A stretch of 64,000 nt of DNA from Candidatus Zixiibacteriota bacterium (lineage in GTDB: Bacteria; Zixibacteria; MSB-5A5; GN15; JAAZOE01), in assembly GCA_041394985.1 (NCBI GenBank), contig JAWLBI010000001.1, positions 2,198,882-2,262,881 on the forward strand. Direction: 5' to 3'. Position 1 is the first letter of the stretch; each line of letters opens with the position of its first letter. Both the position numbers and the translations under genes were made by a program. This document shows positions 8,633 through 27,394 of the stretch, in pieces. A model generated the notes under the pieces. The model saw nothing but the letters and a program-made list of their open reading frames with translations, had not been told where the DNA came from and did no database searches.

Positions 8633-8696
8633 TTCGCTCTGTCTGAGGATGATGGGTGAGAAAATCGGCCCGTGATAAATGGGAGGAATGTCCTGT

Positions 8697-10163
8697 ATGA
8701 AAACGTTGGTAAGTGTCTTTGCCTTGGTTATACTACTCAGTTTTACCTCATTTGCTATGGGGCAGGAGAGTTACTATAGTACTTATCCGGCAATGACGGA
8801 ATTGAGCTATGGATATTATGGCGGCGGCTCTCGTGCGTTCGCAATGGGCAGCGCCAATATCGGGATAGCCGACGATGTCAATGGGGGTGCCTGGAATCCC
8901 GCGGGCATTTGGGTGATCGAATCTCCGACGGTGTCTGCTTCATATAGCATGTTCAATCCGGATGGTGATTTTACCCTGGATAGATCCTTTGGGATTAAAA
9001 GATCATTCGGTACGACTAATAAAATAGATATGAGCGCTATCGGGCATTTTTCGTTTGTGACGCCGGTTCGAATCAAAGGGCATCCCTTTGTATTCACCTT
9101 TAACTATGTTCGCAACAATGAGCGCACTGAAGAGAGCGTCGTCGACGATGACGATTCGTTTAATGATAGTCAGGATAAATCGTTTTTGCGGACCTATGCT
9201 CTCGGCTTTTCGACTCGCATTTATAAGCAATTGTCATTTGGAGCGCTTGCGAACATTTATGATGGCCGACGGATCAAAAACGCGATATCGTCAACCTCCA
9301 GAGATACGTCAATCCTCGTGAATTCGACATACATTACCCAGGAACTTGCCGAAACCGCGACCGCTCTTGATTCGGTCAGCGCCAACGGCTTCAATTTCAC
9401 CCTGGGATTGTTGTATAAATTCGAAAAATTCAGCATCGGTGCATCGGTACATACTCCGTTCGATATGAAGAATGACAACGATCGTTCGGAATTCGAAGTG
9501 ACGACGATCGGTGGTCTCCCGAGCATAAACAATTCGGATACGACTTATATTCAAGACTTGAAAACGAAGACGGGAATGCCGCTTTCTCTCGGATTTGGTG
9601 TCGGTTTTTATCCGAATGAAAAACTGACCTTCGCGGTTGATGCGAATTATCAAAAATACGGATCGGTCGATTATTATTATCTCGATTCGACGTTTATTTC
9701 TCCCGGTGGTGACCGGTTCGATTTCTTCGAAACGATTCCGATTGACTGGAACAATACGTTCAGTTTCGGTGGAGGAGCCGAGTACAAATTGACTACCGGT
9801 TTTGGCCAGATTCCGCTTCGCGCAGGTGTCCGATACAATCAACTCCCCAAACCGGAAAAGTTCACTGTCGATACGTATGCTCTGTATGATGATGACGATG
9901 TTTATACCGGTGTCAACAATGTGGATTTTACGGCTCAGGATCGTCAGAGTGAAGTGTGGATTACGCTGGGAACAGGTATTCACTGGGAACAGCTTGGATT
10001 CGATATTTCCTATCGCATTGTCAGCGGTCAAAAAGAGACGACGGAACACAACTACTATAATTCCTTCGAGAGTGATGGAAGTGTTGTGAGTACCGGACAA
10101 TCGACTGAAGTCGTCGAAGGAAAAGCGAACGAGTTTTATATTTCCTTTACGGGACGTTTCTAA
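8697..10163 (+). CDS. outer-membrane beta-barrel protein (FadL/PorV-like superfamily)
   Basis: The ATG at 8697 lies 9 nt after gggagga. Signal peptide ends SFAMGQ. GGGSRAFAMGSANIGIADDVNGGAWNPAGI is typical of this barrel family, and the C-terminus ends in F. Confidence 0.6.
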   Translation: MKTLVSVFALVILLSFTSFAMGQESYYSTYPAMTELSYGYYGGGSRAFAMGSANIGIADDVNGGAWNPAGIWVIESPTVSASYSMFNPDGDFTLDRSFGIKRSFGTTNKIDMSAIGHFSFVTPVRIKGHPFVFTFNYVRNNERTEESVVDDDDSFNDSQDKSFLRTYALGFSTRIYKQLSFGALANIYDGRRIKNAISSTSRDTSILVNSTYITQELAETATALDSVSANGFNFTLGLLYKFEKFSIGASVHTPFDMKNDNDRSEFEVTTIGGLPSINNSDTTYIQDLKTKTGMPLSLGFGVGFYPNEKLTFAVDANYQKYGSVDYYYLDSTFISPGGDRFDFFETIPIDWNNTFSFGGGAEYKLTTGFGQIPLRAGVRYNQLPKPEKFTVDTYALYDDDDVYTGVNNVDFTAQDRQSEVWITLGTGIHWEQLGFDISYRIVSGQKETTEHNYYNSFESDGSVVSTGQSTEVVEGKANEFYISFTGRF

Positions 10164-10985: not shown

Positions 10986-13124
10986 ATGCTCAAAGTAGCC
11001 TTTCTGTGGCATATGCATCAGCCGTACTATCGAGACCCGATAACCGGCGATATGATTTTGCCCTGGGTACGGCTGCATTGTCTCAAAGATTATTACGATC
11101 TTCCGCACCGGGTTGGAAAATACCCCAACCTCAAGATGACATTCAACCTGGTGCCGTCACTCATAGAACAAATCGACCTGTATTGCCGGCGGCAGACAAC
11201 CGACCGGCATCTTCAATTAACGGTCAAACCGACGCGCGACCTCAGCCGCGAAGAGCGGGCCGAGGTCTTTCGGCTGTTTTTCTGGGCCAACCCGGATACC
11301 ATGATAACCCCGTTTCCCCGGTATCGCAGGCTTTACAAAAAACTGAAGGACTGCTCGATGGACGCCGAGATGGCCGCTCGTACGGCGTCGGTTCAGGAAC
11401 TGCGCGATTTGATCGTCTGGGGTTCTCTTGTCTGGGTCGATCCCGTCCTGAGGACAACCGAACCGTACCGGCGACTATTTCAAAAGGGCGAGGGGTTCAG
11501 CGAGGACGACAAGTTGGAGTTGGTCGAGGCCCAATATAAGACGATGGCCGAAGTCATCCCTATGTACAAACGGCTGATGGACGAGGGGAAAATAGAAGTC
11601 TCATTCACGCCGTATTATCATCCTATTCTGCCGCTTTTGTGCGATACCGAATCGGCACACGAAGCATTGCCTGACTTGCCGTTGCCGAAACATCGCTTTC
11701 GCCATCCTGAAGATGCCGCGCTCCAGATACGGTTGGCGGCAGAGATGTACAAAGAGAAATTCGATCGCCCCCTGACCGGGATGTGGCCGTCAGAGGGGTC
11801 CGTTTCTGAGGAAATGGCGGCGATACTGGCCGCTCAGGGAATCAAGTGGATGGCATCCGACGAACAGGTGTTGTATCGTTCGGCAACCAAATCCGGATCG
11901 TTTGCAGGGCGACCATCGCCGCATTGCATCTATCGCCATGACACGAAAAACGGTGCGGTCAATATCGTCTTTCGCGATCACGCCTTGTCCGATAAAATAG
12001 GATTTGTCTATTCCGGCTGGGAGCCTGCCAAGGCTGTCAATGATTTCGTCGGTCAATTACATCGGCTGCACGATCTACTTGGCAGCGAAGCAGATAGTTC
12101 AGTCATTCCGGTCATTCTTGATGGTGAAAATTGCTGGGAATATTTCCCAAATGACGGCGACGAGTTTCTCAACCTCTTTTTTGATCGTCTGTCAACCGAT
12201 CCGAAAATTCAAACGGTTACGATCAGCGAGGCATGTGAACTTCTCAAGCCGCAGCCGCTCAAACATATTCTCGCCGGTTCCTGGATAAATAACAATTTCC
12301 GCATATGGATCGGGCATCCGGAAGATAACACGGCCTGGGATTTACTCTGGGAAGCGCGACAGGCACTGACCCAATTCAAAGAGGCACATCCCGATTATGA
12401 TAAAGTCAAATTGGCGGCGGCGGAAAAGTCACTGCTTGTTGCCGAGGGGTCCGACTGGAACTGGTGGTATGGTGACGAGCATACCAGTAATCAGAGTGAA
12501 ATATTCGATCAGATCTATCGCGCTCACCTTCAATCCGTATATGACAATCTCGGTCTTGAGCCGCCGCAAAGCCTGTCGACACCAATCAAATCCGGAGTGC
12601 CTGAATCGTTTGTGACGGCTCCTGAAGGTACTATTACGCCTATAATAGACGGGAAACTGACTCATTATTATGAATGGCTCGGGGCCGGCACGTATGATTG
12701 TAAGAAAGCGGGCGGGGCCATGCATCGCGTCGACCGAATCCTGACCCAATTCTCGTATGTTTCCGATGATGATTATGTTTATATTCGAGCTGATTTCGAT
12801 GAAAAAGGTTTTTTGGTTGACAATCGCGATAAAGCGTTGAAAATTGAAGTTCTGCAACCGGGCCGGGGCGATTTTATATTCTCTGCCTCTGGTCTGATAA
12901 AACATCCCGATTGGGTGCAGAACAAGGAAGATATCACGTTCGCAACCGGGGACATTGCCGAGGTGGCTTTGAAGAAAACGATTTTCTTCCCGGACGGACG
13001 GGGAACCCTGCACTTTCGAGTCGGAATATCCGAGAAAAAGCGGGATGTCGAGTTGTGGCCGCATGGAGATCCGGTGAAATTTACCGTTACCGGGAGCGGC
13101 GAAGACATAGTCTGGGATTTGTAA
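10986..13124 (+). CDS. glycoside hydrolase family 57 protein (alpha-amylase/4-alpha-glucanotransferase type)
   Basis: 712 aa. The N-terminus VAFLWHMHQPYYRD and the downstream WPSEGSVS and GSDWNWWYG regions are typical of GH57. Confidence 0.85.
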   Translation: MLKVAFLWHMHQPYYRDPITGDMILPWVRLHCLKDYYDLPHRVGKYPNLKMTFNLVPSLIEQIDLYCRRQTTDRHLQLTVKPTRDLSREERAEVFRLFFWANPDTMITPFPRYRRLYKKLKDCSMDAEMAARTASVQELRDLIVWGSLVWVDPVLRTTEPYRRLFQKGEGFSEDDKLELVEAQYKTMAEVIPMYKRLMDEGKIEVSFTPYYHPILPLLCDTESAHEALPDLPLPKHRFRHPEDAALQIRLAAEMYKEKFDRPLTGMWPSEGSVSEEMAAILAAQGIKWMASDEQVLYRSATKSGSFAGRPSPHCIYRHDTKNGAVNIVFRDHALSDKIGFVYSGWEPAKAVNDFVGQLHRLHDLLGSEADSSVIPVILDGENCWEYFPNDGDEFLNLFFDRLSTDPKIQTVTISEACELLKPQPLKHILAGSWINNNFRIWIGHPEDNTAWDLLWEARQALTQFKEAHPDYDKVKLAAAEKSLLVAEGSDWNWWYGDEHTSNQSEIFDQIYRAHLQSVYDNLGLEPPQSLSTPIKSGVPESFVTAPEGTITPIIDGKLTHYYEWLGAGTYDCKKAGGAMHRVDRILTQFSYVSDDDYVYIRADFDEKGFLVDNRDKALKIEVLQPGRGDFIFSASGLIKHPDWVQNKEDITFATGDIAEVALKKTIFFPDGRGTLHFRVGISEKKRDVELWPHGDPVKFTVTGSGEDIVWDL

Positions 13125-13136
13125 GCTGGAGGATAC

Positions 13137-13532
13137 ATGTCAAACTCGTTTTTTGATAATGAAGAGAGCCGGGATCAGTTTTCCGGCGAAAGCGGTATTC
13201 CGGAGTTAAACGCCGAGCCGGAAAAGTCTCGTCCGACCGAGGATCGGCGGATGATGGCCATCATGGCATATATACCGTTTCTCTGTTTCCTGCCGCTTAT
13301 CAAAATGAAGGATGATCCCTACGCCTATTTTCATGCCCGCCAGGGATTAATTCTGTTCTTCATTGAAATCATCGCGTTTATCTTTTCGTTTCCCCACATC
13401 AGCCAATTATTCTGGGTGGCGATAATTATCGCGTGTATCGGTTCGGCGGTTGCCGGCATCATGTTTGCCGTACAGGGGAAAACGCATCGCCTGCCGATTA
13501 TTGGAGAACTGGCCGATAAACTGAAATTGTAA
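13137..13532 (+). CDS. small membrane protein (DUF4870-like)
   Basis: 131 aa. MAIMAYIPFLCFLPLI...FHARQGLILF followed by two TM helices. Confidence 0.5.
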   Translation: MSNSFFDNEESRDQFSGESGIPELNAEPEKSRPTEDRRMMAIMAYIPFLCFLPLIKMKDDPYAYFHARQGLILFFIEIIAFIFSFPHISQLFWVAIIIACIGSAVAGIMFAVQGKTHRLPIIGELADKLKL

Positions 13533-13551
13533 GTGTCTCGAGAGGTCTCTC

Positions 13552-14352
13552 ATGAAATCATATAAATCATTGGTTGCGGTATTCGTGTGCGCCGTCGTTT
13601 TGCTTTCGTGTACGACGACCGGTCCCGGCGGCAAGAAATCCTTTATCTTCCTTTCGACGGCCCAGGAAGTGTCCATCGGGCAGGGGATGGATCAGCAGCT
13701 TCGTGAGACCGAGAAGGTCCTGGCTGATCAGGAGTGGCAGGCATACATCACAGAAATCGGCCAGCGCATCGTCAACGTGTCGGATCGCAAGGATATTGAA
13801 TATCATTTTGCCGTCATTGAATCGGATCAAATCAATGCCTTTGCCGCTCCCGGCGGATATGTCTATTTTTACACCGGCCTGATCAAGAAAATGCACTCCG
13901 AGTCCGAACTGGCGGCTGTGATGGCTCATGAAATCAGCCATGTCGTTGCCCGGCATGGCGTCAAGCGGCTCCAATCGGTTTTGGGGTTGTCGCTTGTTCT
14001 CGATCTGGCGCTGGGAGATAAGCCGGAGCAGACACAGCAAATTGCCGGTGCGGCCCTTGGGGTGGTCATGTCAGGGTATTCACGGTCGAATGAGCATGAG
14101 GCCGATGAATTCGGACTAATTTATATGACTCGAGCCGGTTGGCATTCGGATGGGATGTTGACAATGTTTCAGACGCTGCAGGAGCTCGAAGGGGATCACC
14201 AGAGTAGTGTCTTCGAGATGCTGGCTTCCAGCCATCCTCAGACCAATGACCGTATTGCAGCTACCCGTGACAGAATTACGGCTCTGGGGATCAATACCGC
14301 GAATTTGAGTCACGATACACAAAGGTTTCAGCGTTTAAAAAGTAAGCTGTAA
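13552..14352 (+). CDS. M48 family metalloprotease lipoprotein
   Basis: 266 aa. Lipobox LLSCTT. HExxH motif in AVMAHEISHVVARHG, with a downstream E in NEHEADEFG. Confidence 0.85.
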   Translation: MKSYKSLVAVFVCAVVLLSCTTTGPGGKKSFIFLSTAQEVSIGQGMDQQLRETEKVLADQEWQAYITEIGQRIVNVSDRKDIEYHFAVIESDQINAFAAPGGYVYFYTGLIKKMHSESELAAVMAHEISHVVARHGVKRLQSVLGLSLVLDLALGDKPEQTQQIAGAALGVVMSGYSRSNEHEADEFGLIYMTRAGWHSDGMLTMFQTLQELEGDHQSSVFEMLASSHPQTNDRIAATRDRITALGINTANLSHDTQRFQRLKSKL

Positions 14353-14519
14353 AAATAAGGCGGACTCACCCGATTGTGGTGAGCGCTACCCGCAATTTGT
14401 GCTCCGAGTGAACGTAAACGTGCGATTGCGTTCGAACTTTGCACATGATCTCGTAAGTTATTTTCAGTCAATATCTTAATTTGGTTAGTGTCGGATTTTC
14501 TCCGGTTTTTGTTCAATGT

Positions 14520-14535
14520 TGGTACAGGTATGGCA
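14520..14535 (+). promoter_or_regulatory. candidate sigma54 (-24/-12) promoter
   Basis: TGGTAC-aggta-TGGCA. GG (14521-22) and GC (14533-34) are 12 nt apart. There is one mismatch in each half relative to TGGCAC-N5-TTGCA. Confidence 0.35.
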
Positions 14536-14732
14536 AAATACGCCGTGCAGAATAACGGAATTGTCCAACAGTCGAAGGAAATTAGATTCTGAGTTTATCC
14601 CATTAAGAATCAATATCACAATGAGTTATGGGCTAATAGCCGGCCGTGAGATTTTTTGAAATATTATGCGCGATTGCAATCTACGGCGGCATGCAGATTG
14701 CAAATACAATATTGTGTCGAAAGGGTTGAGGT

Positions 14733-14816
14733 ATGAAGACGATTAAGGTTATCATCGGTATCTGGGTTCTGGCAGCCATCGTGGCCGGAATTTTCGGAAA
14801 CGTATCGATTAGCTGA
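14733..14816 (+). CDS. 27-aa hydrophobic micro-ORF (MKTIKVIIGIWVLAAIVAGIFGNVSIS)
   Basis: ATG sits 5 nt after gagg. It encodes a single predicted TM helix, is bracketed by two copies of the palindrome acaatattgt, and is below the ORF-track length cutoff. Confidence 0.3.
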   Translation: MKTIKVIIGIWVLAAIVAGIFGNVSIS

Positions 14817-15069
14817 CAGGCGTGATCCGGATGTGTCCTGACGTATGAAACTCAGTCAGGCAAAAGATTTTGGAAAAACAATATTGTGCACGCAAACGTT
14901 GTTACGAAATTCATCGTGCCTGCTAATGTCGGCCTCGGGTCGGTTAGTGGGACGGGTGGTGCATGACCCACTTGAGATGAGCGGTACCGAATCGTTTGCA
15001 ATTATTCTCCACTCGCGGTTGAGATAACCCACTGTCACCGTTGAGTTGAACACTTTCTCTGCCTGCAAG

Positions 15070-15102
15070 CCGCCGGTTCTTCGGAGCCGGCGGTTTCTTT
15101 TT
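15070..15102 (+). terminator. strong intrinsic terminator with a UUCG tetraloop
   Basis: A 10-bp stem ccgccggttc/gagccggcgg (one G-U pair), loop ttcg, then tttcttttt. No credible CDS ends upstream of it. Confidence 0.65.
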
Positions 15103-15157
15103 ACCTGCAAGACAGTGCAACAAAGAAATGGCCGGGGTTGCATAGAATTGCAGGTAA
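15101..15157. promoter_or_regulatory. nested inverted repeats, possible enhancer (UAS) for the downstream sigma54 promoter
   Basis: The outer 10-bp perfect inverted repeat ttacctgcaa/ttgcaggtaa encloses tgcaac-N15-gttgca. It lies about 180-230 bp upstream of the 15334 promoter. Confidence 0.35.
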
Positions 15158-15333
15158 TATGACCAGGCATTCATGAGAAAAGCGGCAGCGTTATTGGCTG
15201 AAAAACCTCGCGCGAAATTATAGTTCTAATCAATCCATAATTAGAATAGTAAGGCATTGTTATGCAAAATCTTATGCTATGCATATTTTATTAGTACCGA
15301 ACACATGGATGGAAATACAATTCTTAAACCACT

Positions 15334-15349
15334 TGGCAGTCTATTTGCT
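15334..15349 (+). promoter_or_regulatory. sigma54 (-24/-12) promoter upstream of the sugar transferase
   Basis: TGGCAG-tctat-TTGCT with exact GG-N10-GC spacing, 73 nt upstream of the ATG at 15422. Two sigma54 activators are encoded in the window. Confidence 0.55.
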
Positions 15350-15421
15350 CAATACTCCTTCGATGTTTGGATATATTTACATACTCGACTTTTCCGTTAG
15401 ATCTCTTATGGGGGACTGGAA

Positions 15422-16327
15422 ATGATTTCCAATTCGTTAAGTGCGCGAACTGTGAAAGTGGCAATTAACGGCACGAACATTCGGCAGCAGTATCAGGCAA
15501 AGACTTCTCATCAACATACCGCGGCGACGCGGCGTTTTGCGATGCCGAGTCCGGGTTATATCTTTGGCGAGTATATCTGGGGTACGATGGTCCTCGTCCT
15601 CAGCGTCGTCAGCCGTATGGCCAACTCGATTAACGTGTCAATGCCGCTTAAGGGAATCGACAACAGCTTCGTCAAACGGTGTATTGATATTTTCGGTGCT
15701 CTGGTCGGTTTGACGCTGACAGCGCCGTTATTTTTGATTCTGCCGATTCTGATTAAGCTCGATTCACCCGGCCCGGTTTTCTACAAACAGCTGCGTACCG
15801 GACACAATCGCCGTCGTGGTCAGCGCCGTGTTTCCGGTGTCTCCGACCTCGGCCGCTGCAACCGTGATCGCCGTCGCCAGAATCTGCACGGCCGCCCGTT
15901 CGAAGTCATTAAATTCCGAACGATGGTTGCCGACGCCGAGAAGAAATGCGGAGCCGTCTGGGCCACCAAGAATGACCCGCGAATCACGACGCTGGGACAT
16001 ATCATGCGCAAGACTCGCATGGATGAAATCCCGCAGTTCTTAAACATTCTTATCGGCGATATGTCGCTGGTAGGTCCTCGCCCGGAACGTCCGGTGTTTG
16101 TCGAAGAACTGTCCGAGAAGGTAGAAAACTACAAGAAACGCCTCGATGTCAAGCCGGGCCTCACCGGTCTTGCACAGGTCGAAAACGGCTATGACTCCTC
16201 GATCGCCTCGGTCGTCAAGAAGGTCCAGTATGACCTGCAGTACATCCGGAACTGGAGCGTTTGGCAGGATGTGAAAATCATGCTCAAAACGGTTGTGGTC
16301 GTCGTCACGGGTAAGGGTGCCTTCTAA
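15422..16327 (+). CDS. polyprenyl-phosphate sugar transferase (bacterial sugar transferase family, EpsB/WbaP C-terminal type)
   Basis: 301 aa. KRCIDIFGAL...LDSPGPVFYKQ, KFRTM, DEIPQFLNIL.GDMSLVGPRP and the C-terminal region are typical of the family. It contains an Arg-rich insert. Confidence 0.85.
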   Translation: MISNSLSARTVKVAINGTNIRQQYQAKTSHQHTAATRRFAMPSPGYIFGEYIWGTMVLVLSVVSRMANSINVSMPLKGIDNSFVKRCIDIFGALVGLTLTAPLFLILPILIKLDSPGPVFYKQLRTGHNRRRGQRRVSGVSDLGRCNRDRRRQNLHGRPFEVIKFRTMVADAEKKCGAVWATKNDPRITTLGHIMRKTRMDEIPQFLNILIGDMSLVGPRPERPVFVEELSEKVENYKKRLDVKPGLTGLAQVENGYDSSIASVVKKVQYDLQYIRNWSVWQDVKIMLKTVVVVVTGKGAF

Positions 16328-19609: not shown

Positions 19610-21712
19610 ATGGATACCTCACTCCAGTCAGCGTTGTCGCTTTCCAGTATACTCCAAATCATTATAATTGCATTTACTGCCGTGCGCAGCCGCTTGAAGC
19701 GCTATGCGCTGCCGCTTATGGCCTTCGCCATCGTCAACCTCATCGGCATTGCTTCGATGTATTTCGAAACCGGCGATTCGATCTCGCTGTGGGCGATAGG
19801 ATATTACCTGCTGTTTATTTACCTCGCCTGGATGCCCGGCGTGTGGCTCTGGTTATGCGCGAGGTGGGCCATAGATGCCAAATCGTATCCGAAGCATCGC
19901 AAGATTGCCGTCTGGATCGGGTTTGTTGCCTCCTGTCTTTTCACGATAGGATTCATTTATATTCGCGAAATCGACGTGTCGATGATTAATAATCGCTGGT
20001 TTATTACGCTCGGCGGCTGGCGATACTGGTACGGCGCGTACTTCGTGCTGGCCTTAACGACCGGTATTTATTTTATCGAAACCTGTTACCGGTCGGCATT
20101 GGGGCTGTCTCGGGAAAAAATTAAAAAATCATTCTTCCTCCTGATTTCGGCCGGTGTTTGCTATTTATCCGTCATAACCGTCGGCTTCCTGTACGGGCAA
20201 ATCAGCGACTGGATTTTCGTCTTTGTCACGATCATGATAATGGTTGATTCGGTGCTTCTTACGCGGCACTTCCTGCGTTTTAATTTCAATGCAAACAGCG
20301 TCATTCTGACGAAAAAAGGCGTGTATTCTTCGCTGACTATTGTTTTACTGGGGATCTATTTTCTTATAATCGGATCCGTGGGCGAATTTTTGGTGTCGTT
20401 TGACCTCGATGAGGGGTTGTTTTTTACACTTGTCGTGTTGTCCCTCATTGTCGTAACGTTGGCGATTTTGCTGTTTTCGCAAGTGTATCGGGCGCGCACG
20501 GAATCCATCACCGAGGATTCATCTCCATACAAATCGGAATCTGTGTACGGCGTCGAATGGAAGGAGTTCGCTGAAGAGATTTCCGTTCTCCTCAGCATCG
20601 ACAAGATATTCGATCGCAGCAGTCATTTGCTGTACCGGTTGTTGAAAATTGAGGACTGCTTCTTTGTCATTAAAGAACCGCTGCCGTCGCCGAATTACAC
20701 GCTGTATGTCAAGGGCGAAGCGAGCCGCGGCATTTCCGGGCAGCATATCGAAAATCTCGGCGAATGGCTGTATCGATATGCCCGGCCGATAGAACTGGGA
20801 ACGCTCAAGGAACAGGCGCCGAGTGAATTCGAGCAGATCGAACACATCACCGGGCAGTTGTCATTCGAGCCGTTTATTCTTGTTCCGCTGGCGGCCCGCC
20901 AGCAATTGTTAGGATTTTGGGGCGTGGGGACGCATGCATCGGGACGCGATTTGGCATCCGAGGAGATCGCGTTTATCGAGGCCGCGGCCAGCCCGCTCGC
21001 ACTGACGATCCTGACTGCGCGCATTACCGATGAACTCATCGTCTCGCAGGAGATCGAATCCTATCATCGCTTCTCGTCGTTCGTTTTGCATGATTTGAAA
21101 AACTCCGTCGGTATGCTCTCGATGCTGTTGCAGAACGCCGAGAACAACATGGATGATCCCGAATTCCAGCGCGAGGCGCTCATTACCATAAAACGGGCGG
21201 TCGAAAGGCAGCAGAAAATTATATCGCGTCTGACCGAGCAAAAGACCGACGAGCGGTTGGCGCTCGAATCGGTCGAATTGAAAGCGCTTATTGACGATGC
21301 TCTTAATCGAATCAGGTTCGAGACAATATCGAAAATCGAATTGTCCAGTGATGTGCCGGCCGGATGCCCTGTCAAGGTCGACCGAGAAAAGGTTGGCTCC
21401 GTCTTCGATAATTTGCTGATGAATGCAGTCGAGGCCATGCCGAACGGCGGCTCGTTGAAAATTCGGCTCTCTGTTGAATCGGCCGAGAATTCACTTCGTG
21501 GCGTCTCATTTACTGATACGGGAGGCGGCATGGACGAGGAGTTTATCGCGACTCGTTTGTTCAAGCCGTTCAGCTCAACGAAAAAGCATGGACTGGGAAT
21601 CGGCATGTACCAGTCGCGAGAAATCATAAAGCAACACGGCGGCCGACTGGATGTTGCCAGTCAGCCGGGACAAGGAACGACATTCACGGTATATTTGCCT
21701 GCGGTGGAGTAA
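19610..21712 (+). CDS. prsK: polytopic sensor histidine kinase, PrsK-like (PEP-CTERM-system type)
   Basis: 700 aa. About 300 aa of N-terminal TM helices, a GAF-like middle region, H-box FSSFVLHDLKNS, and HATPase N/G boxes (LLMNAVEAMP, DTGGGM, GLGIGM). Confidence 0.7.
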   Translation: MDTSLQSALSLSSILQIIIIAFTAVRSRLKRYALPLMAFAIVNLIGIASMYFETGDSISLWAIGYYLLFIYLAWMPGVWLWLCARWAIDAKSYPKHRKIAVWIGFVASCLFTIGFIYIREIDVSMINNRWFITLGGWRYWYGAYFVLALTTGIYFIETCYRSALGLSREKIKKSFFLLISAGVCYLSVITVGFLYGQISDWIFVFVTIMIMVDSVLLTRHFLRFNFNANSVILTKKGVYSSLTIVLLGIYFLIIGSVGEFLVSFDLDEGLFFTLVVLSLIVVTLAILLFSQVYRARTESITEDSSPYKSESVYGVEWKEFAEEISVLLSIDKIFDRSSHLLYRLLKIEDCFFVIKEPLPSPNYTLYVKGEASRGISGQHIENLGEWLYRYARPIELGTLKEQAPSEFEQIEHITGQLSFEPFILVPLAARQQLLGFWGVGTHASGRDLASEEIAFIEAAASPLALTILTARITDELIVSQEIESYHRFSSFVLHDLKNSVGMLSMLLQNAENNMDDPEFQREALITIKRAVERQQKIISRLTEQKTDERLALESVELKALIDDALNRIRFETISKIELSSDVPAGCPVKVDREKVGSVFDNLLMNAVEAMPNGGSLKIRLSVESAENSLRGVSFTDTGGGMDEEFIATRLFKPFSSTKKHGLGIGMYQSREIIKQHGGRLDVASQPGQGTTFTVYLPAVE

Positions 21713-21713
21713 T

Positions 21714-23072
21714 ATGGGTACGGATAAATTCACGATATTGATAGTCGACGATGACGAAGGATTCCGCTCGCAATTGAGGTGGGCGCTCAAGGGCGAATAT
21801 GATGTCGTCGAGGCGGAAAACGTCGAAGACGCCATTGCTGCCGCCAATGAACATCGCCCGTATGTCGTTCTTCAGGATATCGCATTGAGCAGCAGGGAAG
21901 ATGCCGCCGAGGGGCTCGAACTGATCGGCAAGTACCTGAAAATCCAGCCATACTGTAAAGTCATGATGGTCACCGGTCACGGGCACAATGAAAACGCCAT
22001 CGCCGCCATTGGTTTGGGAGCATATGATTTTTTCAGCAAGCCGGTCGATATCGATCAGTTGAAAATTATGATAAGGCGCGGGACGCGCGTCGCCAAACTG
22101 GAGCAGGAAAACAACGAATTATCGGCGCGACTGGCCCAAGTAAAAAGCTATGAGAGTCTCATCGGGGATTCTCAGGCGATGCTCGAAATTTATAGGATTA
22201 TCGACACCGTTTCGACGACCGATTATACCGTATTAATAACCGGTGAATCAGGTACCGGTAAAGAACTTGTGTCTAAGGCCATCCATTCCGCCAGCCCGCG
22301 AGCCAAGCATCCATTCATCACTATTAATTGCGGAGCCATTCCGGAAAACCTGCTGGAGTCCGAATTGTTCGGGCATGAAAAAGGCGCCTTCACCGATGCC
22401 CATGCCCAGAAAATCGGGAAATTCGAACTGGCTGACAAAGGAACGATTTTCCTCGATGAAATCGGCGAGTTGTCTCTCAGTTTACAGGTTAAACTCCTGC
22501 GCGTTCTGGAAGACCATAAGATCGAGCGAATCGGCGGGCGAGAGATGATTTCATTGGATGTCCGCGTCCTTGCCGCTACGAACCGCAATCTTCTCACTGA
22601 GGTATCCAACGGCAGATTCCGGGAAGACCTCTATTATCGCCTCTCCGTTATCGCCATCGACATGCCGCCCCTGAGGGACCGCGGTGACGATATCCTGCTT
22701 CTGGCGAATACGTTCCTGAAGCGGTACGGCGCCGAGAACGGCCGCCCGAATTTGTCCTATACCGAGGCGGCGGCGCGGTCGATTGCATCATATAATTGGC
22801 CGGGAAATGTCCGCGAGCTCGAGAATAAAATCAAGCGGGCCGTTATTATGGCTCAGGATAAGAAAATCAAGCCGAAAGATCTCAATCTGCCGACCGTCTC
22901 CGGCGGCGGCGAGCGCCCGACGCTGCAATCGGTCAGGGAAGATGCCGAGCGGGAATATCTGGTCGAATCATTGGTTCGAAATAACTGGAATATCTCGCGG
23001 GTCAGCCGGGAGATAGGGACATCCAGGACGACTCTGTATGATCTTATTGAGAAGTATAATTTGAAAAAATAA
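21714..23072 (+). CDS. prsR: sigma54-dependent response regulator, PrsR-like
   Basis: The ATG at 21714 is 2 nt after the kinase stop. It has a REC domain with the unusual segment DIALSSREDAAEGLELI seen in PEP-CTERM-box regulators, an AAA+ domain (GESGTGKE, GAFTDA, ESELFGHEKGAF) and a C-terminal HTH. Confidence 0.75.
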   Translation: MGTDKFTILIVDDDEGFRSQLRWALKGEYDVVEAENVEDAIAAANEHRPYVVLQDIALSSREDAAEGLELIGKYLKIQPYCKVMMVTGHGHNENAIAAIGLGAYDFFSKPVDIDQLKIMIRRGTRVAKLEQENNELSARLAQVKSYESLIGDSQAMLEIYRIIDTVSTTDYTVLITGESGTGKELVSKAIHSASPRAKHPFITINCGAIPENLLESELFGHEKGAFTDAHAQKIGKFELADKGTIFLDEIGELSLSLQVKLLRVLEDHKIERIGGREMISLDVRVLAATNRNLLTEVSNGRFREDLYYRLSVIAIDMPPLRDRGDDILLLANTFLKRYGAENGRPNLSYTEAAARSIASYNWPGNVRELENKIKRAVIMAQDKKIKPKDLNLPTVSGGGERPTLQSVREDAEREYLVESLVRNNWNISRVSREIGTSRTTLYDLIEKYNLKK

Positions 23073-23264: not shown

Positions 23265-24698
23265 ATGAAAAAAGTACTCCTTGTAGACGACGATGTTGAA
23301 CTGTCACAGTCACTTATGAACTTATTTGACCCGGACAAATACAGTTTTCATCATCTCGCAGACGGTCAGGATACTGCTCGATATGTCGAAGACAATCGAG
23401 AGGATCTCGATCTTATCATGCTTGACGTCAACTTACCTTCCTGTTCCGGACTGGATGTCCTTAAGAATATAAAAGATATCAGTAAGGAAACGCCGGTGAT
23501 CGTTATCTCCGGTTTCGTTTCCACTGAGAACGCCATGGAGGCGATGCGCGAAGGTGCCTATGAATATTTGACCAAGCCGTTCGAATTGAGCAAGCTGATC
23601 GACATCGTCAATAAGGCCTGCGGATACTCGCATGAAGCGACGAGAAAAGCGATCGAAAAGCCGACTCATGATGAAGAAGCCATGGCTGACGAAATCATCG
23701 GTCAGTCACCGGAAATCGTGGAGATCGCCAAGCTCATCGGCCAGGTTGCCAAAACCGATGCTTCGGTGCTCATCTTCGGCGAGTCGGGTACCGGTAAGGA
23801 ACTCGTCGCCCGCGCGATTCATCGCAACAGCCTCCGCAGAAACAACATGATTCTGTCGGTCAACTGCGCGGCTCTGTCCGACACGCTCCTTGAGTCCGAA
23901 TTATTCGGTCACGAAAAAGGCGCCTTTACCGGAGCCTATTTCAAACGAATCGGTAAATTCGAGCAGTGCGACAAGGGCACGATATTCCTCGATGAAGTCG
24001 GCGATATGTCCATGCTGACGCAGGGGAAAGTCCTGCGCGTATTGCAGGAAAAGCAGTTCGAGCGCCTGGGCGGCAACGACCCGATTAATGTCGATGTTCG
24101 CGTCATCGCCGCGACGAATAAGTCGCTGGTGCAGTCGATGAAGGACGGCTCGTTCCGAGTCGACCTGTTCTATCGTCTTAAGGTTGTCTCGATTTACATC
24201 CCGCCGCTGCGGGAACGCAAAGAAGATATTCCTCTTCTGATAGATCATTTCATTCAGCGTTATAATAATACGCTCAGCAAGAACATCCGCGGCGTATCCA
24301 AAAAAGCCAAGGCGCACCTGACGAAGTACATCTGGCCGGGCAATGTCCGTGAACTGGAGAATAATATCCACACGGCCATGGTGATGTCCAAGAATGATAC
24401 CCTCGATGTCGAGGACTTCCCGGTGTGCAACGAAGACGCCAATACGGTGGAAATCGACCTCGAAGGATTGCAGGACAATTATACCGAGATGTTCAGCCGA
24501 ATCATCGACCCGGTATTCCCGAAACTGGTCAGCAATTCCGAGGGGCGGATTTATCACCTGATGCAGTCTTCAATGGAGAAGGCACTCATCGCCGCCTGCC
24601 TGAAACATTTCAATTCGAATCAGGTCAAGGCGTCGGATATGCTGGGGATTTCCAGAAACACGCTGCGCGACAGGATTAGCAAATACGGCATTTACTAA
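23265..24698 (+). CDS. sigma54-dependent Fis-family response regulator (NtrC-like)
   Basis: 477 aa. REC domain (LDLIMLDVNLP), AAA+ domain (GESGTGKE, ESELFGHEKGAFTGA), and Fis-type HTH (ASDMLGISRNTLRDRISKYGI). Confidence 0.85.
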   Translation: MKKVLLVDDDVELSQSLMNLFDPDKYSFHHLADGQDTARYVEDNREDLDLIMLDVNLPSCSGLDVLKNIKDISKETPVIVISGFVSTENAMEAMREGAYEYLTKPFELSKLIDIVNKACGYSHEATRKAIEKPTHDEEAMADEIIGQSPEIVEIAKLIGQVAKTDASVLIFGESGTGKELVARAIHRNSLRRNNMILSVNCAALSDTLLESELFGHEKGAFTGAYFKRIGKFEQCDKGTIFLDEVGDMSMLTQGKVLRVLQEKQFERLGGNDPINVDVRVIAATNKSLVQSMKDGSFRVDLFYRLKVVSIYIPPLRERKEDIPLLIDHFIQRYNNTLSKNIRGVSKKAKAHLTKYIWPGNVRELENNIHTAMVMSKNDTLDVEDFPVCNEDANTVEIDLEGLQDNYTEMFSRIIDPVFPKLVSNSEGRIYHLMQSSMEKALIAACLKHFNSNQVKASDMLGISRNTLRDRISKYGIY

Positions 24699-24771: not shown

Positions 24772-25842
24772 ATGCAGTCGGAAACCCGCGAATACAATGT
24801 CATAGATGATACCATCGTGCGCCGCACGGCCTCGGAGATTCAACTCCTGTTTCGGCCGGATGCGCCGCAGCCTGCCCTCTCAGGTACCGGGACGACGGAG
24901 AAAGCCCCTCCGCTGATTGATGATATTACATCAGTGCCGCCGGTGACAATACGCTCAATAGAATCAGATGCTGTCGTTTACGCAATCGACGGCGGCTCAT
25001 CGGTTATCGCCAAGGGCGGCAATGTCGAGGTTATCTGCTGGCGGGCCGGATATGTATGCTTCAAAGGCATTCACCGGGAGGGCGAATTCTGCGAGTCCCC
25101 AAACATCCTTGCCTATAACCGGCTTAACATAAACTCAATCATCAATGATTTTCTCGCGGGAACGGATTTCAAACGAGTAATGGATGAAACTCCACTCAGC
25201 CCCGTCAATGAATTGCGCTGGATGAGTGAATGGATGCTGTTGCGGCGATTAATCGATGAAGCGCCCGAAGGGTCACTAATCCTCATGGACGGCACTCTGC
25301 GGGCCAATCCGTTTTTCGATGTCAAGCCTCAGCATGACCTATTCAAAAAGGCGGCCCAAAACGGCATTCATATCGCATCCGTCACAAAGACAAGTTCGCT
25401 TTCATTGGACAAAGCTATCCCGATAGATATTATGGAGATCGGAGCGGATGAGCAAAGTAAAACATGGTATCGCCAGCTCAACATGTCATTGCCAAAGGAT
25501 TCCCCGTGGCTGGGCGATGTGTATCTGGCCGGACTGCATCCCGGCGCAGACAAACGATACCGTGTGGATATCAATCGCTATGACACCGAGGCGGTCGACA
25601 GGATTTTCTCGATACTGGTTTCGGTATCGGACGATACCGAATTCGCCGGATACCCATATCCTTTGGTAGCGGCGCATCGGCAGGCGCGAATCGATTTACT
25701 GTTCAAACAATCAATCATCGAGGCACTCGGTGAGGAATTGAACCGCCTTGACTTTTCCGATGGCTTGTGGCATTTTCTGACCGGTGATATTCACGATAAA
25801 CTCAACGCAGATGTTCTGGAGATAGCGGCGCATGAGCAGTAA
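24772..25842 (+). CDS. nurA: NurA-domain nuclease
   Basis: 356 aa. AIDGGS, ELRWMSEWMLL, ILMDGTL, SVTKTSSL and GYPYPLVAAHRQARI match the conserved NurA catalytic and structural motifs as I recall them. It overlaps herA by 11 nt. Confidence 0.65.
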   Translation: MQSETREYNVIDDTIVRRTASEIQLLFRPDAPQPALSGTGTTEKAPPLIDDITSVPPVTIRSIESDAVVYAIDGGSSVIAKGGNVEVICWRAGYVCFKGIHREGEFCESPNILAYNRLNINSIINDFLAGTDFKRVMDETPLSPVNELRWMSEWMLLRRLIDEAPEGSLILMDGTLRANPFFDVKPQHDLFKKAAQNGIHIASVTKTSSLSLDKAIPIDIMEIGADEQSKTWYRQLNMSLPKDSPWLGDVYLAGLHPGADKRYRVDINRYDTEAVDRIFSILVSVSDDTEFAGYPYPLVAAHRQARIDLLFKQSIIEALGEELNRLDFSDGLWHFLTGDIHDKLNADVLEIAAHEQ

Positions 25843-27394
25843 AATCATCGGGCGGCTGATAGGGAAATCGGTTGCGGAGTTATCATTCCGCTCATTCCGC
25901 GATAGCTATATCTCCATTGGGAGCATCGTTACGGTCAATGATGAATCGCGCGACCGGACATATTTGCTGCGAGTCATCGATGTCAGCTACGGGCACGAGA
26001 GCAGCGAGGCGAACTGGGCGGAAAAGGCGGCCGGGCGCATGATGGAAGAGGATACTCGCGGCAACGCATATCGCATCCATGACCCCGATCGGCGATTGTA
26101 TAAATTGGTCAAGTGTTCGCCGCTGGGATATGTTTCGAATAATGCCTTTCATCGACCACGCTCGATACCCGAACATTTCTCTCGAGTGCTGACTCCGGAC
26201 GAGGAAACAATGGCATTCCTCCGGGAGTACAGCGGCGATCTTATTGTCGGCCATCTTCGCTGCGGCGAGGATACGCTCAATATTCCTCTCGGCATCGACG
26301 GCACGACACTGTCACAGCATGTCGGTATTTTTGCCACGACCGGTATGGGCAAATCGAATTTGATGAAAGTCCTGGCGGCAGCAATCATGGAACACCCATC
26401 GTATGGATTGCTCATTTTCGACCCGCATGGCGAATATTTCGATGGTGGACAGGGAGGGAAGCGCAAAGGTCTGAAGCATCATCCCTTGGCTGAGAAAAGG
26501 CTCTTTACGCGCAGCTTGAGGAAACTTTCCGGCAATAAAGACACGCTGGCGATACCGCTCAAGGATATCGAAATCGAGGACATCACCCAGATTTTCGGAT
26601 TTTCTCAGGCACAATACGAAGCGCTCCAGGCGATTCGTATCAAATACGGCAAGGAATGGCTGATTAAGCTCATCTCGATCGATATCGAAACGCTCATCGA
26701 GGAACTCCGCGACAGCCGCCTGAATTTCCATGAATCGACCATGGCGGTACTTATTCGCCGAGCCAATCATCTGGCGGAATTCCGAACGGTCACCAAAGAC
26801 AATGACTATGCATCGGTCGGCGATATTGTCGCCAAGGTTCAAAGCGGCAAGGCAGTGTTGATTGATACCGCCAATTTATCTCAGGACGAGGATTTACTCG
26901 TGACATCGGTTATCACTCGCTCTGTACTCAAGAGCTACAAATACAAGTACCAACAGGCCGAAGGGGAATTCGACAAACTTTCGCCTTGTCTGATTATGCT
27001 CGAAGAGGCCCAACGTGTTCTCATGGCATCGGCGGGCGATACCAATATCTTCCACCGCGTCGTCAGGGAAGGCCGTAAATTCAAGGTCGGCCTTGGCGTT
27101 ATTACGCAGCAGCCGAAGCTGCTGTCCGAGGAGCTCCTTTCGCAGCTAAACTCTATGTTCATTCTCGGTCTTGCCGATGAGCGCGACCGCACGATTATGC
27201 GGTCATCATCCAAGCAGGACATTTCATCACTGGGAACCGAAATCCAAACCCTGGCTGCGGGCGAGGCCATATTGACATCTCCGACCGTGCCGTTTGCCCT
27301 GCCATTGAAGATATTCCTCTATGAGGACTACCTTGCACGATTGCCCAAGGATATTGCCAAACCGGCCGAACGACCGGCGGAGGGTTTCTTCTGA
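25832..27394 (+). CDS. herA: HerA-type (DUF87) hexameric ATPase/translocase
   Basis: 520 aa. Walker A is GIFATTGMGKSN and Walker B is CLIMLEEAQ. REGRKFKVGLGVITQQP is typical of HerA/FtsK-like ATPases. Confidence 0.8.
   Translation: MSSKIIGRLIGKSVAELSFRSFRDSYISIGSIVTVNDESRDRTYLLRVIDVSYGHESSEANWAEKAAGRMMEEDTRGNAYRIHDPDRRLYKLVKCSPLGYVSNNAFHRPRSIPEHFSRVLTPDEETMAFLREYSGDLIVGHLRCGEDTLNIPLGIDGTTLSQHVGIFATTGMGKSNLMKVLAAAIMEHPSYGLLIFDPHGEYFDGGQGGKRKGLKHHPLAEKRLFTRSLRKLSGNKDTLAIPLKDIEIEDITQIFGFSQAQYEALQAIRIKYGKEWLIKLISIDIETLIEELRDSRLNFHESTMAVLIRRANHLAEFRTVTKDNDYASVGDIVAKVQSGKAVLIDTANLSQDEDLLVTSVITRSVLKSYKYKYQQAEGEFDKLSPCLIMLEEAQRVLMASAGDTNIFHRVVREGRKFKVGLGVITQQPKLLSEELLSQLNSMFILGLADERDRTIMRSSSKQDISSLGTEIQTLAAGEAILTSPTVPFALPLKIFLYEDYLARLPKDIAKPAERPAEGFF

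Follow-up and report, generated by a model that had tools for sequence, protein, structure and literature searches.

This analysis concerns a 1.07-kb gap, poor in open reading frames (ORFs), at positions 14353-15421 of a 64-kb stretch of Candidatus Zixiibacteriota DNA (hereafter the window). Comparison of the gap with 23 related loci (24 loci with the window) indicates that it probably comprises two sigma54 units: the remnant of a truncated porV-like gene, in which a promoter (P1) and a micro-ORF of 27 amino acids (aa) under selection precede a structured RNA tail and a terminator, and after it the enhancer and promoter (P2) of a polysaccharide gene cluster. The promoters and the enhancer are of a known kind; a signal-peptide-only gene with a structured tail would be new among small-protein and dual-function RNA genes, and it belongs to one clade of an uncultured phylum.

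In the proposed arrangement, the first unit (~14713-15102, roughly 390 nucleotides (nt)) would be what remains of a gene for a PorV/PorQ-family beta-barrel. The reading frame would have been cut at codon 28 in an ancestor of the clade and the mature domain lost later, leaving P1 with its upstream activator sites, a ribosome-binding site, the 27 signal-peptide codons, a structured tail of ~250 nt and the terminator. The 27-aa product would still be translated and kept by selection, most likely as a single-helix small protein of the inner membrane, and the tail would either stabilise the short mRNA or give the RNA a second, regulatory role. This unit would then be a sigma54-dependent small-protein mRNA from a truncated gene, possibly with a dual function. 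The second unit would begin right after the terminator, where two TGCA-N6-TGCA dyads and an AT-rich block lead to P2, which would drive the gene of the priming sugar transferase and the surface-polysaccharide genes that follow it.

Origin and selection of the 27-codon micro-ORF

The micro-ORF (14733-14816, forward strand; MKTIKVIIGIWVLAAIVAGIFGNVSIS), which follows a Shine-Dalgarno-like AAGGG/GAGG at 14721-14730, is a signal peptide orphaned from the gene of an outer-membrane protein of the PorV/PorQ family. An initial annotation of the window had reported this ORF, and it was found again at the same position. Its 27 residues align over their full length with the first 27 of the proteins that more distant relatives (L005-L008, L010-L016, L085, L169-L171) encode at this locus; in L011, for example, residues 1-27 read MRTIKIILAIWVLAAIIAGVFGNISVA and are followed by AENG. 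All five of the full-length proteins scanned (L005, L008, L011, L013 and L015) score 146-193 bits with NF033709, the PorV/PorQ family model, whose cut-off is 90. In the truncated genomes the frame ends at codon 28 with TGA, TAG or TAA (7/7), at a position where the full-length relatives carry GGN or GCN. By the Ala-X-Ala rule codon 28 would encode the first residue of the mature protein, and a single GGA-to-TGA change could have begun the truncation. Searches of the six frames of the seven truncated gaps with tblastn and a profile hidden Markov model (HMM) for traces of the mature domain matched only residues 1-27. The product is homologous to the first 27 residues of family members and lacks the entire barrel of ~300 aa that NF033709 describes, which makes it a derivative of the PorV/PorQ family rather than a member.

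Three states of the locus were distinguished among the loci compared. The truncated state, a gene-less gap of ~1.05 kb between the M48 peptidase and sugar transferase genes, is limited to the seven closest genomes (the window, L164, L165, L166, L167, L168 and L004), and alignments of the truncated clade refer to these seven. The sugar transferases of the six other members are 71-87% identical to that of the window. The full-length state, with an ORF of 304-315 aa in the gap (307-308 aa in the nearer relatives), is found in 16 more distant relatives (the L005-L008, L010-L016, L085 and L169-L171 set above). In the absent state, represented by L009 (5472-5868), the unit is deleted, and the TGCA dyads and P2 come immediately after the M48 gene. 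One further locus, L086 (1-966), has another upstream context and fits none of the three states, with one dyad and P2 kept. A scan of metagenome contigs added three close relatives, none of the truncated type. Because the full gene is present in the more distant relatives, the outgroups L013-L016 among them, the sequence comparison identifies the truncated state as the derived one.

The 27 codons and the stop at the same codon are retained in all seven genomes of the truncated clade. Across them, the variable columns at the first, second and third codon positions number 12, 5 and 25 of 26, and the minimum substitutions 15, 5 and 42. The initial annotation had suggested examining the conservation and substitution pattern of the ORF in relatives, and the outcome favours a coding sequence: pairwise ratios of nonsynonymous to synonymous substitution rates (dN/dS) are 0.04-0.24, with dS ranging from 0.6 to saturation. 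The conserved frame, start and stop, the three-base periodicity and a dN/dS below 1 are together the pattern of a genuine small coding ORF, and by these substitution patterns strong purifying selection acts on the micro-ORF. None of the other frames in the gap is common to all seven genomes. ORFs of 104 aa and 60 aa that overlap the tail were considered as genes and rejected, as they are not conserved.

The mean identity of the peptide within the truncated clade is 0.75, compared with 0.77 for the sugar transferase; among the full-length relatives the corresponding values are 0.66 for the signal peptide and 0.64 for the enzyme. Judged by these identities, the peptide and the sugar transferase evolve at similarly slow rates, whether or not the peptide has its cargo domain. 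Within the full-length proteins the signal peptide is not clearly more conserved than the mature part (identity 0.61 vs 0.57). Taken together, the conservation pattern suggests that the 27-aa product is translated and functional.

Other systems offer partial likenesses. Enterococcus sex pheromones are bioactive peptides released from lipoprotein signal peptides, and there too the conserved entity is a signal-peptide sequence. Unlike the pheromones, the signal peptide in the window is encoded alone, with no cargo and no need of cleavage. Among small membrane proteins, YohP has 27 aa, and KdpF, MgrB and AcrZ are further examples. The window peptide resembles these single-helix proteins in its size of ~27 aa, its positive N-terminus and its one hydrophobic helix, and genes of this size are missed by standard gene callers; it differs in having no homology to any of them and in its origin by truncation of the gene of a secreted protein. 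YohP is a subject of PMC12719787. A literature search found no paper on signal-peptide-only genes. It is a tentative and rather unlikely proposal that the PorV/PorQ-like signal peptide has an inner-membrane function of its own, for example in modulating the multi-pass kinase PrsK or other surface-polysaccharide machinery, and that selection would for this reason have kept a signal-peptide-only gene on a structured, sigma54-controlled and maybe regulatory RNA.

Two observations concern sequences that resemble parts of this gene family. A FadL/Toluene_X-type outer-membrane protein of 494 aa (8679-10163) resembles PorV/PorQ and BamG models weakly and below threshold; besides the micro-ORF, this unrelated FadL-like protein is the only match, a weak one, that the PorV-like proteins give within the window. 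In the distant relatives L015 (6850-6909) and L016 (6854-6910), an ORF of 247-248 aa directly 3' of the sugar transferase gene starts with M(K/E)TVKLIIGKWV, resembling the start of the micro-ORF or of the signal peptide. This ORF occupies the position of the PEGA-domain gene of the closer relatives, and the likeness is probably a chance similarity between signal peptides.

Promoters, upstream sites and activators

P1 is a sigma54-type promoter, CGGCATGCAGATTGCA (CGGCAT-GCAGA-TTGCA, with the -24 GG and -12 GC), at 14687-14702 on the forward strand, with a predicted transcription start at ~14712-14714. P2, TGGCAGTCTATTTGCT (TGGCAG-TCTAT-TTGCT), lies at 15334-15349 on the same strand, 72 nt 5' of the ATG of the sugar transferase gene (15422). 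The pattern GGCA-N6-TTGCW occurs at only two sites in the window, namely P1 and P2, and both have the GG/GC spacing of the sigma54 consensus TGGCAC-N5-TTGCW. Both are also conserved in position. Each of the 22 loci with a porV-like gene or a micro-ORF has a P1-type site just 5' of it, the 16-mer ending 28-88 nt before the start codon, and within the truncated clade this site is near-invariant (GGCATGCAnATTGCAATAC). P2 was found in 24/24 loci, with an exact match of 20 nt in L009, and its identification in the initial annotation was correct.

The two promoters differ in what lies upstream of them. For P2, the candidate enhancer, or upstream activator site (UAS), consists of two dyads, TGCAAGACAGTGCA (15106-15119) and TGCATAGAATTGCA (15139-15152), spanning 15106-15152. 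TGCA-N6-TGCA occurs in the window only at 15106 and 15139, with zero occurrences of the composite pattern expected. In 18 of the 24 loci a TGCA dyad lies at each of two distances from P2, -225 to -236 and -194/-195; 20 loci have at least one of the two, and hardly any other such site occurs within a locus. The initial annotation had described nested inverted repeats here and had assigned 15101-15157, together with the promoter at 15334-15349, to the control of the sugar transferase cluster. The repeats were recovered at 15096-15162, the dyads are their core, and the fixed distance of the dyads (20/24 loci) and the conservation of P2 (24/24) agree with that assignment. Between enhancer and promoter, at 15211-15260, lies an AT-rich block (..AAATTATAG..TCCATAAT..GTAAGGCATTGT..) that forms a conservation peak of 0.58-0.61 in the seven-genome alignment, and its TCCAYRAT motif recurs in more distant relatives. 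The block may be a DNA-bending or architectural site.

For P1, the region 14405-14535 is a candidate enhancer; it contains TGAAC at 14409-14413, GTTCGAAC at 14431-14438 and GTTCA-N5-GGTAC at 14511-14525, and this third motif overlaps the promoter that the initial annotation had placed at 14520-14535. In most of the 22 loci, GTTCA/TGAAC half-sites lie at about -320/-310, -258/-248 and -178/-167 from P1, against a background of ~0.6 per 340 nt. The GTTCA-N5-GGTAC of the window is a degenerate copy of a proximal GTTCA-N5-TGAAC dyad that relatives carry ~170 nt 5' of P1.

Activators of the appropriate kind are encoded nearby, as had been reported for the window. The gene for PrsK (19610-21712) lies downstream of the sugar transferase gene and is followed by that for PrsR (21714-23072; TIGR02915, 548.6 bits against a cut-off of 502.6) and, beside it, by that for an NtrC-like activator (23265-24698). 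PrsR and the NtrC-like protein both carry the Sigma54_activat domain and are encoded 6-8 kb downstream. The genome has enhancer sites as well as AAA+ activators. Because the motifs upstream of P1 and P2 differ and two activators are encoded nearby, the two promoters are probably served by different activators, one each. A literature search found no paper linking Zixibacteria to sigma54.

The arrangement resembles the sigma54 regions of PEP-CTERM/exopolysaccharide loci linked to PrsK/PrsR by Haft et al. 2006 (PMC1569441), in which the mean distance from the end of the sigma54 site to the start codon is 71 nt. Shared features are a large intergenic region, a -24/-12 site at 72 nt compared with the mean of 71 nt, an upstream activator site, and adjoining PrsK/PrsR and exopolysaccharide genes. 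The window differs in having TGCA-N6-TGCA dyads at about -195/-227 from P2 and GTTCA/TGAAC half-sites at P1, in the genes served (a sugar transferase and a PorV-like remnant, not PEP-CTERM proteins) and in phylum (Zixibacteria). The PrsR motif of that study is a 17-nt element ending in TTTACA, ~63 nt 5' of the sigma54 site, and is described for Proteobacteria only (PMC1569441). It was not found 5' of P2, where the stretch ~50-90 nt upstream is poorly conserved (0.32-0.47), and the only TTTACA near P2 lies downstream of it, at 15375-15380.

The structured tail, the terminator and competing explanations

A non-coding tail of ~250 nt separates the stop codon of the micro-ORF from the terminator. 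Conservation in the seven-genome alignment peaks at P1, the micro-ORF, 14922-14941, the terminator and enhancer, 15211-15250 and P2, and between these peaks pairwise identity falls to 0.22-0.35. The peak at 14922-14941 is part of a structured RNA element (14913-14984, forward strand), which was predicted with RNAalifold on a sequence-based alignment and comprises a nested hairpin at 14919-14951 with a near-invariant apical GCCUCRGG and a second hairpin at 14955-14974. In this element 89.5% of the cells are paired, compared with 22-50% in slid controls, both sides have changed in 8 of the 17 pairs, and the covariation score was matched by none of 500 shuffles. Pairing on the reverse strand is 75.2%, and 17 G.U cells make the forward strand the better fit. 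A covariance model of the element gave one hit in each truncated locus and none elsewhere, either in the window or in 16 other loci, over 288 kb searched; in L165, a member of the clade, most of it is deleted. The pairing pattern is suggestive and supports the structure, short of proving it.

The terminator that closes the unit has a 13-base-pair (bp) stem (15067-15096), a UUCG loop and a T-run to 15102 on the forward strand. The initial annotation had identified it, counting 10 pairs where the terminator scan counts 13. In the seven genomes, five of the 12 predicted pairs still pair after changes on both sides. The accompanying statement that no credible protein gene precedes the terminator was mistaken, as the micro-ORF is a selected gene on the same transcript. 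A short transcript that depends on sigma54, includes the micro-ORF and terminates at 15102, as had been proposed, is very probable; it would start at P1 (~390 nt) and not at 14520 (~0.5 kb).

A scan against the families of Rfam 15 gave no match at gathering score in the region, and the best sub-threshold E-values (2.6-4.8) are at the level of chance. The fold stability of the whole transcript is unremarkable (z = -1.2). Pairing of the palindromes or of the 5' untranslated region (5' UTR) with the tail was inconsistent across genomes and in none of them clearly exceeded shuffles (z of about -2.0 to +1.9), and a duplex of the tail with the sugar transferase 5' UTR gave no signal above background (z -0.6 to +1.0). 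Dual-function small RNAs that encode a peptide include Staphylococcus RNAIII/hld (26 aa), SgrS/SgrT, SR1/SR1P and AzuCR. The transcript of the window resembles them in its length of a few hundred nucleotides, its conserved ORF of ~27 aa, its conserved structured non-coding part and its intrinsic terminator. It differs in its negative duplex predictions, in the absence of any sequence or Rfam relationship, in its sigma54-dependent promoter and in the descent of its ORF from a signal peptide.

Several points weigh against two sigma54 units with a functional micro-ORF. That the transcript starts at P1, ends at 15102 and is translated is predicted only from conservation, and the signal-peptidase cleavage site of the full-length homologues is placed by the Ala-X-Ala pattern rather than by a predictor. 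A free signal peptide is normally degraded by signal-peptide peptidases, so that a stable role for the peptide is not obvious. The covariation of the tail comes from six informative sequences that are related to one another and from which the structure itself was derived. The tail shows no similarity to the full-length genes: its nhmmer profile gave no match in 15 full-length loci or in L009, which lacks the gene. No base-pairing target of the tail was found in its own 5' UTR or in that of the sugar transferase. On the side of the activators, PrsR has GAFTDA, not GAFTGA, in its sigma54-contact loop. The NtrC-like activator has the canonical GAFTGA (encoded at 23919), and this difference may influence which of the two can act at P1 and P2. 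No RpoN-box was found within the window, the presence of rpoN being implied only by the two activator genes.

The main alternatives, in which the gap would hold an inert pseudogene, a promoter at 14520, an attenuator leader or a type I toxin, are much less likely than the two units described. The model of the initial annotation, with a sigma54 promoter TGGTAC-N5-TGGCA at 14520-14535, a transcript of ~0.5 kb and twin palindromes (ACAATATTGT, 14706-14715 and 14878-14887) as activator sites, is very improbable. The letters of this promoter are present with correct GG/GC spacing (score 9/11), and the palindrome occurs twice in the region and nowhere else in the window (0.07 copies expected). However, the promoter and the palindromes are already unconserved among the six closest relatives, whereas P1, 167 nt downstream, is conserved in 22/22 loci, and the TGGTAC half aligns with the TGAAC half-site of the conserved dyad. 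Both palindromes are part of a 19-nt direct repeat specific to the window (TTGCAAATACAATATTGTG / TTGGAAAAACAATATTGTG, 14698-14716 and 14870-14888), the first copy of which overlaps the -12 element and start region of P1; the repeat is absent from the six closest relatives, and the palindromes are therefore not enhancer sites shared with them. A 9-bp hairpin reported at 14684-14702 does exist, with its arms at 14674-14682 and 14695-14703, and its 3' arm is the -12 element of P1, which had been overlooked. Among the motifs compared across orthologous regions, the P1-type site and P2 are conserved and the 14520 site and palindromes are not.

It is equally hard to accept that the micro-ORF and tail are a decaying, functionless pseudogene remnant in which only the enhancer and P2 matter. 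The mature domain is entirely gone, and L009 has lost the whole unit while keeping the enhancer and P2, so the unit is dispensable in some lineages. Yet synonymous sites are near saturation while frame, start, stop and amino acids are kept in 7/7 genomes (dN/dS 0.04-0.24), P1 is near-invariant, and the terminator and tail hairpins stay paired through compensatory changes, all of this while the flanking non-coding DNA drops to 0.22-0.35 pairwise identity. A cis-acting leader, in which translation of the micro-ORF would control termination at 15067-15102 and read-through from P1 into the sugar transferase operon, would account for a short ORF, a structured RNA and a terminator in series upstream of an operon on the same strand, and is improbable to a somewhat lesser degree. 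It sits poorly with the ~250 nt between stop codon and terminator, with conservation of the whole amino-acid sequence and not merely of a few regulatory codons, and with the operon's own conserved enhancer and P2 3' of the terminator; in full-length relatives, moreover, a terminator-like hairpin and T-run (read by eye) are found there after the 308-aa gene. The least probable alternative is a type I toxin-antitoxin-like module, with a hydrophobic 27-aa membrane toxin whose mRNA would be controlled by an antisense RNA. Peptide size, hydrophobicity, a structured mRNA and a strong terminator are reminiscent of Hok, Ldr and TisB-type loci, but the peptide is by descent a signal peptide of the ordinary Sec type, the locus occurs in a single copy, is syntenic and has been inherited vertically, and its promoter is sigma54-dependent and enhancer-controlled. 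A scan for sigma-70-type promoters gave no reverse-strand site in 14353-15421, and the RNA pairing favours the forward strand.

Genomic setting and significance

The gap is flanked upstream by the M48 peptidase gene (13552-14352, forward strand) and downstream by the polyprenyl-phosphate sugar transferase gene (15422-16327, forward strand; 301 aa; TIGR03025, 299.7 bits against a cut-off of 295.55). The closest named relatives of the flanking proteins are all Zixibacteria. In nearly all relatives, as in the window (10986-14352), the upstream order begins with a GH57 glycoside hydrolase of 712 aa; a protein of 131 aa that weakly matches MamF/MmsF comes next, and then the M48 peptidase. The sugar transferase is a short form, its best match covering only the C-terminal ~150 positions of the 445-aa TIGR03025 profile, and this form is common to the relatives (298-326 aa). 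Between it and PrsK, a PEGA-domain protein, then an fn3 protein and a protein of 285 aa are encoded. Directly 3' of the two sigma54 activator genes are a HerA-like ATPase gene (520 aa; 25832-27394), whose matches are far under the family cut-offs, and, alongside it, an unannotated ORF of 356 aa.

The micro-ORF provides a clean, datable example of the birth of a small-protein gene, in which the gene of a secreted protein was cut at what would be its signal-peptide boundary. Selection on the 27-codon remnant is as strong as on the neighbouring enzyme, suggesting that some signal peptides act beyond targeting. The gene and its structured RNA lay in an apparently empty gap where standard gene callers missed them, in a phylum without cultured representatives. 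Additionally, the TGCA-N6-TGCA and GTTCA-N5-TGAAC dyads offer candidate binding sites for PrsR and the NtrC-like activator outside Proteobacteria, where the site of PrsR was previously undefined. If the signal peptide does have a function of its own, this locus would document the conversion of a Sec signal peptide into a free-standing small-protein gene or dual-function RNA.

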